From: Gammaproteobacteria bacterium
Lineage (GTDB): Bacteria; Pseudomonadota; Gammaproteobacteria; Eutrophobiales; Eutrophobiaceae
Length of the DNA stretch: 64,000 nt
NCBI GenBank assembly: GCA_040905045.1
Contig: JBBDSH010000081.1
Span: 18,919 to 82,918, forward strand
Direction of reading: 5' to 3'
Below the pieces are notes generated by a model. The model saw nothing but the letters and a program-made list of their open reading frames with translations, was not told the origin of the DNA and did no database searches. Shown here one piece after another: positions 63,192 to 63,341 of this stretch. How positions within the stretch are numbered: the stretch's first letter is position 1; the number at the start of each line of letters is the position of its first letter. A program made the translations under genes and the position numbers.

Positions 63192-63341
63192 GTGGCTGGT
63201 GGCTGGTGGCTGGTGGCTGGTGGCTCGGGGATCGGGGATCGGGGATCGGGGATCGGAAAAAGTCCGGCAGACTTATACCCGTTGTCAACATTCATGAACT
63301 TGCAGGTCTCGAGCCACGAGACCCGAGCCACGAGTCCCGAT
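63192..63341. repeat. heptamer-hairpin element of a second family: (GTGGCTG)x4-(GGGGATC)x4 arm, ~50-nt spacer, (GAGCCAC/GAGNCCC)x4 arm
   Basis: gtggctggtggctggtggctggtggctcggggatcggggatcggggatcggggatcgg ... ctcgagccacgagacccgagccacgagtcccgat. Lies between the glmU start and the atpC stop. Confidence 0.8.

Follow-up and report, generated by a model that had tools for sequence, protein, structure and literature searches.

Why should the gap between atpC and glmU in an uncultured gammaproteobacterium be filled largely by an element of seven-nucleotide repeats, and why should those repeats face one another as the arms of a hairpin? The question arises in a 64,000-nt stretch of contig JBBDSH010000081.1 (positions 18,919 to 82,918), part of the metagenome-assembled genome (MAG) GCA_040905045.1; this whole stretch is called the window below, and coordinates are counted from its first letter. 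Within it, atpC (encoding the F1 epsilon subunit; 63353-63775) and glmU (61778-63142) lie one after the other on the minus strand, which is the transcript strand for both, the plus strand being the template. The untranslated spacer between these co-oriented genes is 210 nt long, and most of it is taken up by a hairpin of tandem heptamers, whose arms end 14 nt from the atpC stop codon (63353-63355) on one side and 49 nt from the glmU start codon (63140-63142) on the other. This hairpin does not code for protein, nor is it a transposable element of the classical type. The explanation that we favour, with moderate confidence, is a slippage-expanded intercistronic stem-loop of the kind known as short tandemly repeated repetitive (STRR) elements or heptameric simple sequence repeats (SSRs), a role at the 3' end of the atp transcript included.

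Read on the plus strand, the left arm starts with a tandem array of (GTGGCTG)4 at 63192-63219, which is closed by a single GTGGCTC unit (63220-63226, from reading the sequence) and followed directly by (GGGGATC)4 at 63227-63254. Both arrays were recognised by eye and by Tandem Repeats Finder (TRF), with 100% matches and scores of 68 and 64, and the four GGGGATC units are 100% identical. A unique 56-nt spacer (63255-63310), which contains a small stem (AAGTC/GACTT, 63260-63274), forms the loop. The right arm, GAGCCAC GAGACCC GAGCCAC GAGTCCC (63311-63338, plus strand), was delimited by TRF, arm pairing and alignment, and TRF describes it as a 14-nt period with 94% matches. Each arm contains both unit types, grouped into blocks in the left arm and mixed in the right one, where GAGACCC and GAGTCCC (reverse complements GGGTCTC and GGGACTC) agree with GGGGATC at 5/7 positions and alternate with GAGCCAC. 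On the transcript the order is reversed: the right arm becomes the 5' arm, GGGACUC GUGGCUC GGGUCUC GUGGCUC, and the left arm becomes the 3' arm, in which the GGGGATC block reads (GAUCCCC)4 and 63192-63226 reads GAGCCAC (CAGCCAC)4. Two plus-strand open reading frames (ORFs) over the array (63188-63793 and 63192-63344) were treated as spurious, being antisense to atpC or consisting of the repeat itself.

A preliminary description of this locus had reported a heptamer hairpin between glmU and atpC, and its blocks and spacer were confirmed by reading the sequence and by TRF; the flanking genes, too, are as it stated. A second, short GTGGCTS tract that it mentioned is also real: three units, GTGGCTG GTGGCTC GTGGCTA, lie at 59220-59240 on the plus strand and take up the greater part of the 27 nt that separate two convergent stop codons. 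The GTGGCTN family therefore has two loci in the window, and the tandem GGGNATC dimer occurs in one array. Heptamer periodicity in the window exceeds chance. Exact tandem tracts number five for period 7 and zero for periods 4-6 and 8-12. With a looser lag test, four regions appear at lag 7 and none at any other lag from 4 to 12, and the GTGGCTS dimer pattern has 11 matches in the window against 3.0 ± 1.8 expected. Since period 7 alone is enriched among tandem periods, this periodicity is not chance, and the suggestion that the element shares its architecture and its generating process with the other heptamer hairpins of the window is strengthened by period 7 being unique there.

How old the element is can be judged from the same junction in relatives, whose loci we denote by L-numbers and whose junction sequences we give in the atpC-to-glmU direction. 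The GlmU of the window is identical to MEX2525316.1 and is the one member of its protein cluster, and the nearest relatives by GlmU reach a maximum of 80% identity. Among the matches listed in a genome scan with AtpC, relatives have at most 83% identity, and the closer matches listed are several MAGs labelled Thiotrichaceae. In the contig index, no record of exactly this AtpC or this GlmU was found. A metagenome scan with the conserved motif preceding glmU returned 11 loci, three of them true junctions.

Heptamer hairpins stand between atpC and glmU in relatives whose GlmU is 72-80% identical. In L084-L088, a single lineage from five Joint Genome Institute (JGI) samples with 74% GlmU identity, the junction reads GGGACTC GTGGCTA GTGGCTC GTAGTTC, an 8-nt loop, and then GAGCCAC GAACCCC CAACTCC. 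Both unit types of the window recur here, the four-unit arm being orthologous to window 63311-63338, and identity with the window extends over the initial 14 nt of the 5' arm and over the 19 nt that precede the glmU start codon. Other lineages have other units at the same place: RAGCYAC/GTNGCTT hairpins (GTRGCTT) in L089 and L083, GTAAAAA/GTTGMAA units in L082, GTGATTG units in L095 and GTGAAGN units in the low-GC L013. Each lineage uses the same lineage-specific units in its two arms, which points to co-evolution of the arms, and the folds beat shuffled sequences across lineages (z -1.6 to -10.5). The preliminary description had singled out this junction as one at which presence or absence would be easy to test phylogenetically, and the comparison gave heptamer hairpins in at least six related lineages. 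The pattern is not that of an insertion which some genomes have and others lack, as L084-L088 carry GGGACTC/GTGGCTN/GAGCCAC/GAWCCCC at the same place and the element is therefore ancestral there. The comparison shows that the ancestor shared by this MAG and its nearest relatives already had a GTGGCTN/GGGNNTC stem-loop at this place.

The individual blocks have a shorter history. A tandem GTRGCTN dimer occurs in 7/101 related loci, all from the closest relatives, and a tandem GGGNATC dimer in 0/101, indicating that the GGGGATC block is a lineage-specific expansion. No other copy of the 56-nt spacer was found in the window or in the 101 related loci. In L081, L090 and L101, a Pseudomonas-type repetitive extragenic palindromic (REP) palindrome with the end ...GGCCTCCTACA replaces the heptamer hairpin, and both L084 and the window have a remnant of this palindrome after their heptamer hairpin. 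In the window, this remnant lies in the segment preceding glmU (63143-63191, minus strand), which is kept in relatives and borders the repeat from outside: TATCGGCTACCATAGCGCC stands directly before the glmU ATG (63143-63161), and a degenerate GGGGCTCCTATA in the segment aligns to GGCCTCCTACA of the relatives, where it is the end of the REP-like palindrome. Low-GC relatives have plain hairpins after atpC, followed in L008 and the L010 group by a T-run that resembles an intrinsic terminator, and because of these plain hairpins we place the ancestral position of the 3' hairpin after atpC. The preliminary description would have yielded to a conserved atp-operon terminator in relatives combined with a lack of heptamer periodicity elsewhere; the first half of this was found, in the form of a homologous 3' element after the atp operon, while heptamer periodicity is abundant elsewhere. 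In L003 (6428-6577, 4.9-Mb MAG contig), the atpC-glmU spacer has a near-perfect stem of ~34 bp (z -10.5) built from GGGCAAT/GGGGTCR units with a period of ~15 nt, not 7 nt.

The preliminary description had also called the unit sequences of the GTGGCTN and GTRAGGA families unrelated, and this has to be given up. The two share a GTRR head, in register across arrays and orthologous loci, and relatives show the intermediate units GTAGCTT, GTTGCTT and GTTGCAA. The GTRR tetranucleotide is found in 7/10 unit families against 0.21 expected (P ~0.001), and is absent from GGGAATC, three STRR units and TAACTGA. Among 82 units pooled from 22 arms, position 1 is G in 79/82, position 2 is T in 74/82, position 3 is a purine in 71/82 and position 4 is a purine in 80/82, positions 5-7 being nearly uninformative; the phase of this pooled logo was chosen by eye, and unit families may share ancestry. 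Arms can be phased as GTRR plus NNN in the window, L013, L081, L082, L084, L089, L095 and L103-L110.

Orthologous loci give the same picture. At the junction of BCCP and biotin carboxylase, the window has GTGAGGA GTAAGAA GCAAGAA GTGAGGA, L103-L108 have GTTAATC GTGAATC GTGAATT GTGCATA, and L109/L110 have GTAAATC GTGAATC GTAAATC GTGCATA. At the carboxyltransferase-ADH junction, where the register in the MAFFT alignment is anchored by an orthologous inner element (ATCGTCATGCCGG...TTATCCGGCATC), GTAAGGA GTGAGGC GTAAGAA GTGAGGA GTTGGTT in the window is aligned with GTGAGTA GTAAATA GTAAGTA GTGAACA GTAAAAT in L109; the orthologous spacer is kept and the tails of the arms differ. Identity between orthologous units at positions 1-7 is 17/17, 14/17, 8/17, 13/17, 5/17, 4/17 and 9/17 (the pairs are not fully independent), so that G1, T2 and R4 are conserved and positions 5-6 are at chance. 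Over its dispersed loci, each genome favours a tail of its own: -GGA dominates in the window, and -ATC/-ATT in L103-L110 (63-65% G+C); there are six GTRAGGA loci in the window and 5-6 loci of GTGAATN type in 18.7 kb of L109. Together with atpC-glmU, these junctions provide a comparative handle on the phenomenon, since all three carry heptamer hairpins in several lineages. Lineages agree in the site, in the pairing of their arms, in the 7-nt register and in the GTRR head; they are free to differ in unit tails, copy number and loop.

We would describe the focal element as a compound heptanucleotide SSR, arranged as an imperfect inverted repeat in the untranslated atpC-glmU spacer. In the lineage of the window, replication slippage may have expanded two adjacent units, in one arm only, to give (GTGGCTG)4 and (GGGGATC)4. 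We infer slippage because the two blocks are perfect and confined to one arm; the preliminary description had proposed it, and perfect one-arm blocks of this sort do look recent. A parallel case is found in L109 (10313-10385), where (CATTCAC)3-4 (GAATTAC)6 stands opposite a five-unit arm. L110 (5321-5509), from another sample, shares its flanking protein with L109 and has an array of at least 8 GAATTAC units that runs across a scaffold gap; the difference between the two loci is a probable copy-number polymorphism.

One-arm expansion would have put the stem out of balance. The arms pair at best with 75-80% complementarity over 25-28 nt, which makes the hairpin real yet imperfect. In the fold of the transcript, the 5' arm pairs with GAGCCAC (CAGCCAC)n by way of several bulges, and (GAUCCCC)4 plus two CAGCCAC units stay unpaired; these 63 nt of the 3' arm hold 35 C, 10 G, 14 A and 4 U and are thus C-rich and G-poor. 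The atp transcript would then present a short stem based on GUGGCUC/GAGCCAC, followed by 63 nt of C-rich, G-poor RNA, and the DNA template strand would acquire a four-tract G-quadruplex motif. The arms could be kept matched by selection on pairing, or by switches of template inside the quasi-palindrome, a mutational mechanism that is established in E. coli. By analogy with REP and STRR sequences, the RNA stem-loop may be a barrier at the 3' end of the atp-operon mRNA, marking or protecting that end and keeping the mRNA insulated from glmU; that the element marks this 3' end is probable. As a Rho loading site, the C-rich tract left unpaired could in addition aid Rho-dependent termination, C-rich and G-poor RNA being the established property of rut sites. 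A role as RNA structure is favoured over one as a strong terminator because two sister hairpins of the window are found within apparent operons, between the genes for lipoamide dehydrogenase (E3) and E1-alpha and between those for BCCP and biotin carboxylase.

Several observations weigh against this explanation. The focal hairpin is weak: its z-scores range from -0.95 to -2.3 for RNA (-0.95 and -1.36 for folds of the whole spacer, -2.3 for the trimmed RNA) and from -0.5 to -2.0 for DNA (-2.0 and -0.5), against -8.3 and -7.4 for the two GTRAGGA hairpins (39234-39331 and 46497-46572). Under strong selection for a long stem, one-arm expansions would not be expected to persist. Between 62900 and 63600 there are no terminator-like sites on the minus strand, the sole such site being on the plus strand, and no promoter-like sites; nor is there a U-tract after the stem on the transcript strand, where the sequence is GCAAUGAGCGGGGCUCC. 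No Rfam family matches across the window at the gathering score, and matches at 63050-63450 are sub-threshold chance matches to eukaryotic families. The five samples of the L084 lineage are without length variation at the junction. Local slippage also leaves two things unexplained, namely tails that are common to dispersed loci and differ at orthologous ones, and the in-register conservation of the GT(RR) head. Finally, every functional step is an inference, the organism being uncultured.

By itself, the focal copy is an ordinary, slightly decayed representative of its class, and the class had been published before: inverted pairs of GGGNATC repeats near stop codons (PMC4692102) and STRR sequences between cistrons (PMC2670836) are already described. 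The atpC-glmU element adds an example to this poorly understood class and does not found a new one. In bacteria, tandem heptamers have been known since the cyanobacterial STRR sequences and were catalogued again in Xanthomonas, Nostoc and Beggiatoaceae, with their origin and function unsettled. In Xanthomonas and Nostoc, GGGNATC-type repeats show a marked preference for four units and lie between co-oriented ORFs, near the upstream ORF or its stop codon; 70/186 arrays form convergent inverted pairs capable of a stem-loop, 83% of arrays keep the same gene context between two species with differing lengths, and the repeats form G-quadruplexes in vitro, with no function found (Rehm et al. 2015, PMC4692102).

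In its architecture, the focal element fits this known kind of heptamer repeat closely, and GGGGATC matches the GGGNATC consensus. With four GGGGATC units, it has more than the two tandem GGGNATC/GGGANTN units that define the class, it has four intact G-tracts with a predicted quadruplex, and it is intergenic, between co-oriented ORFs and nearer to the end of the upstream one (14 vs 49 nt). The same context with variable length and sequence is found in relatives (L084-L088, L089, L083, L082, L095 and L013). Unlike in that class, GGGNATC is not the abundant, dominant unit here, with one array in 64 kb and 0/101 related loci. The focal block is also fused to a second unit, GTGGCTG, that looks unrelated, with an inverted partner that interleaves both unit types, and the dominant units of this clade (GTRAGGA, GTGAATC and GTGGCTN) have no G-tracts and carry the GTRR head absent from GGGAATC.

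STRR sequences share with the element the 7-bp tandem units, the intergenic position and the formation of hairpins between adjacent cistrons. Their units in heterocystous cyanobacteria are CCCCAGT, TTGGTCA and CAACAGT; these are from another phylum, differ from ours and lack a GTRR head, so that the likeness is one of architecture, with no sequence relationship shown. STRR hairpins lie between hupS and hupL in several cyanobacteria, where transcript stabilisation or translation coupling has been proposed (PMC2670836). Closer in lineage are the TAACTGA arrays of marine Beggiatoaceae, which are also abundant intergenic heptamer arrays in a gammaproteobacterial lineage. These have one unit only, are almost all direct (one indirect set among 170) and stand a few nt upstream of start codons, and S1, Csp and CsrA have been proposed as their readers (MacGregor 2015, PMC4679880). 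The arrays of the window instead lie close against stop codons, frequently form inverted pairs and are built from several units, which sets them outside the TAACTGA repeats. According to Mrazek et al., as summarised in PMC4679880, heptamers are the most abundant class of long SSRs and possibly arise by polymerase slippage.

If slippage is granted, the whole phenomenon might be a neutral mutational by-product without function, in which the replication machinery of the clade favours heptamer tracts that are tolerated past stop codons and drift in length by slippage. We regard this as somewhat unlikely. It would account for the confinement of period-7 tracts to intergenic DNA and for the decay of the focal hairpin, with its unmatched blocks and a z near -2, and it accords with the polymerase slippage proposed for heptamer SSRs by Mrazek et al. 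(summarised in PMC4679880) and with the failure of Rehm et al. to find a function for GGGNATC repeats (PMC4692102). It does not sit well with a junction site kept across 72-80% GlmU divergence or with matching units maintained in both arms of every lineage, and pure drift does not predict that G1, T2 and R4 are identical in 17/17, 14/17 and 13/17 units when positions 5-6 are so in 5/17 and 4/17.

The head and tails could also be the signature of a family spread over the genome and subject to copying or recognition in trans, in the way of REP doublets forming hairpins (REPINs) and their REP-associated tyrosine transposases (RAYTs), with GTRR as the recognition element and the atpC-glmU copy as an old member; we find this doubtful. 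REP stem-loops shield upstream mRNA from 3' exonucleases, REPs have a GT[AG]G head, and REPINs are inverted REP doublets with a spacer between them. The two inverted arms of ~30 nt with their spacer resemble this architecture, both kinds of element are palindromic structures found between cistrons or at operon ends, and Pseudomonas-type REP palindromes occur at the L081/L090/L101 junction and beside one array of the window, so that REP-like palindromes replace or accompany heptamer hairpins in these loci and in L084. Such copying also best accounts for a GTRR head with genome-specific tails, that is, for concerted evolution over dispersed loci in which each genome has its own dominant tail, and for the common unit order of the GTRAGGA arms, which end in GTGAGGA GTAAAAN beside the loop. 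Against it, the spacers are not common to the copies, and the loops of the GTRAGGA hairpins are mutually unrelated. Single arms consist of tandem heptamers and are not palindromic or self-complementary, unlike REPs, despite the GTRR head. An orthologous spacer kept while tails differ speaks for change in place and not for re-insertion, no target duplications were noticed when the flanks were read by eye, and 64 kb contain just two loci of the GTGGCTN family. No RAYT gene turned up in a protein-family scan of 17 of the ~57 ORFs in the window, which was not a transposase screen.

In the same vein, the heptamer hairpins of the clade, the atpC-glmU copy among them, may be one co-evolving REPIN-like system, as opposed to independent microsatellites, in which the GTRR head is held in a strict 7-nt register and the 3-nt tails turn over in concert; this is a tentative idea that we think will probably prove wrong. 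If it were true, a trans-acting reader or copier would be implied, such as a RAYT-like nuclease or inter-locus gene conversion, and another candidate for the reader would be a protein that binds nucleic acid in 7-nt steps, for instance a cold-shock-domain protein. Should head conservation and genome-specific tails hold genome-wide, a reading or copying machinery would be favoured over mere polymerase slippage.

More improbable in our view is that (GGGGATC)4 is the active part, as a G-quadruplex in the template strand, or an i-motif opposite, that pauses or blocks RNA polymerase between atpC and glmU. No other motif in the window has four G4 tracts (G4N3G4N3G4N3G4, with 3-nt loops, plus strand), and allowing quadruplexes in the ViennaRNA gquad model lowers the energy predicted for the plus strand from -66.3 to -83.1 kcal/mol. 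As in the GGGNATC class, the block has exactly four units, lies between co-oriented ORFs and is found upstream of an ORF on the antisense strand; oligonucleotides of that class form quadruplexes in vitro (PMC4692102). However, the transcript carries the C-rich strand, the GGGNATC dimer is missing from the relatives' loci and is found once in the window, and Rehm et al. could demonstrate no regulatory role (PMC4692102). GTGGCTN, GTRAGGA and GTGAATC have no quadruplex potential, which leaves the phenomenon as a whole unexplained. We dropped the G-quadruplex as a general explanation, as one unit family alone can form one. A paper on intrastrand triplexes (PMC4666352) was judged to have no bearing on the element.

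It is very improbable that the element is a canonical intrinsic terminator of the atp operon. It stands where low-GC relatives have short hairpins after atpC, some with a T-run; however, the transcript has neither the compact GC-rich stem nor the U-run of a Rho-independent terminator, the stem being long, interrupted and weak, no terminator-like site lies on the minus strand, and sister elements occur within apparent operons.

Least credible is a Chi hotspot cluster modulating RecBCD near the origin, with the junctions of (GTGGCTG)n units spelling the E. coli Chi octamer GCTGGTGG: there are four overlapping copies in the array (63195-63223), one in the 59220 tract (59223-59230) and 14 in the window against 2.4 ± 1.4 expected, nine of them outside the arrays, and the synteny of L084 puts the locus near oriC, but the copies outside arrays show no strand bias (5 plus, 4 minus), the array copies fall on the inferred lagging strand (a C-rich plus strand with a GC skew of -0.05, together with synteny), which in E. 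coli is the inactive orientation of Chi for fork repair, the octamer is that of E. coli and may not be the host's, the relatives' units GTGGCTC and GTAGCTT do not spell Chi, and the coincidence, at ~1 in 1000 per heptamer, has to be seen against the many known motifs that could be recognised.

A simple MITE (miniature inverted-repeat transposable element), which the preliminary description had thought a poor fit, was rejected: the spacer is unique, there is no shared core, and no terminal inverted repeats or target duplication were noticed on reading the flanks.

All heptamer arrays of the window are intergenic. The GTRAGGA family is present at 24286-24352, at 37138-37182, as the two strong hairpins at 39234-39331 and 46497-46572, and at 49477-49806, where the arms are ~270 nt apart. 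Five arrays lie between co-oriented genes, from a 2-nt overlap with the upstream stop codon to 14 nt past it and 45-269 nt before the next start; two lie between convergent genes and adjoin both stop codons. The purine arm of GTRAGGA resembles a repeated Shine-Dalgarno sequence (TAAGGAG) and its pyrimidine arm the 3' tail of 16S rRNA (CTCCTTA). With GTRA units, three in a row suffice to put a stop codon into each of the three frames. We considered three-frame stop codons as a general role of the repeats; this is valid for GTRAGGA (G-TAA/G-TGA) and fails for GTGGCTG and GGGGATC.

An independent assembly of the same organism, L102 (Logan SRR27977661), is 100% identical to window 46543-51365 (4.8 kb) and therefore holds no information on polymorphism. 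Its start lies inside the 46497-46572 hairpin, which suggests that heptamer hairpins break short-read assemblies.

Directly before the glmU start codon, TATCGGCTACCATAGNNNN is conserved in the window (63143-63161) and in L081, L084, L089, L090, L095, L097 and L101, and it contains no Shine-Dalgarno sequence. TACCAT, 6 nt before the glmU ATG, is a candidate -10 box and could give rise to a leaderless glmU mRNA. In the relative L084, the gene order is gidA-gidB-parAB-atp-glmU, and the GC skew of the window is uniformly negative (plus strand C-rich, -0.05); taken together, these would place the replication origin just past the right end of the window. The GGGGATC block (63227-63254) holds four GATC sites in 28 nt, spaced 7 nt apart, at a locus that synteny puts near oriC. 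In the window as a whole, GATC occurs 379 times against ~245 expected from base composition.

Two further kinds of repeat share the window with the heptamers. REP-like palindromes of Pseudomonas type (TTGTGGGAGCGG...CCGCGAAT) are clustered at 36842-37137 with a period of ~117 nt, and a 62-nt direct repeat there (36842-36903/37076-37137, 90% identical) adjoins an (ACTTCTT)5 array; the same REP type is the one found at the atpC-glmU junction of L081, L090 and L101. A MITE-like element at 26138-26332 has perfect 22-nt terminal inverted repeats (GCCACAGAGAGCCTGCCCCGGA) and a solo end at 54495-54516. Similar ends (GCCACAGAG...CTCTGTGGC) flank heptamer arrays in relatives, at 4520-4650 of L081 and 11255-11500 of L109.

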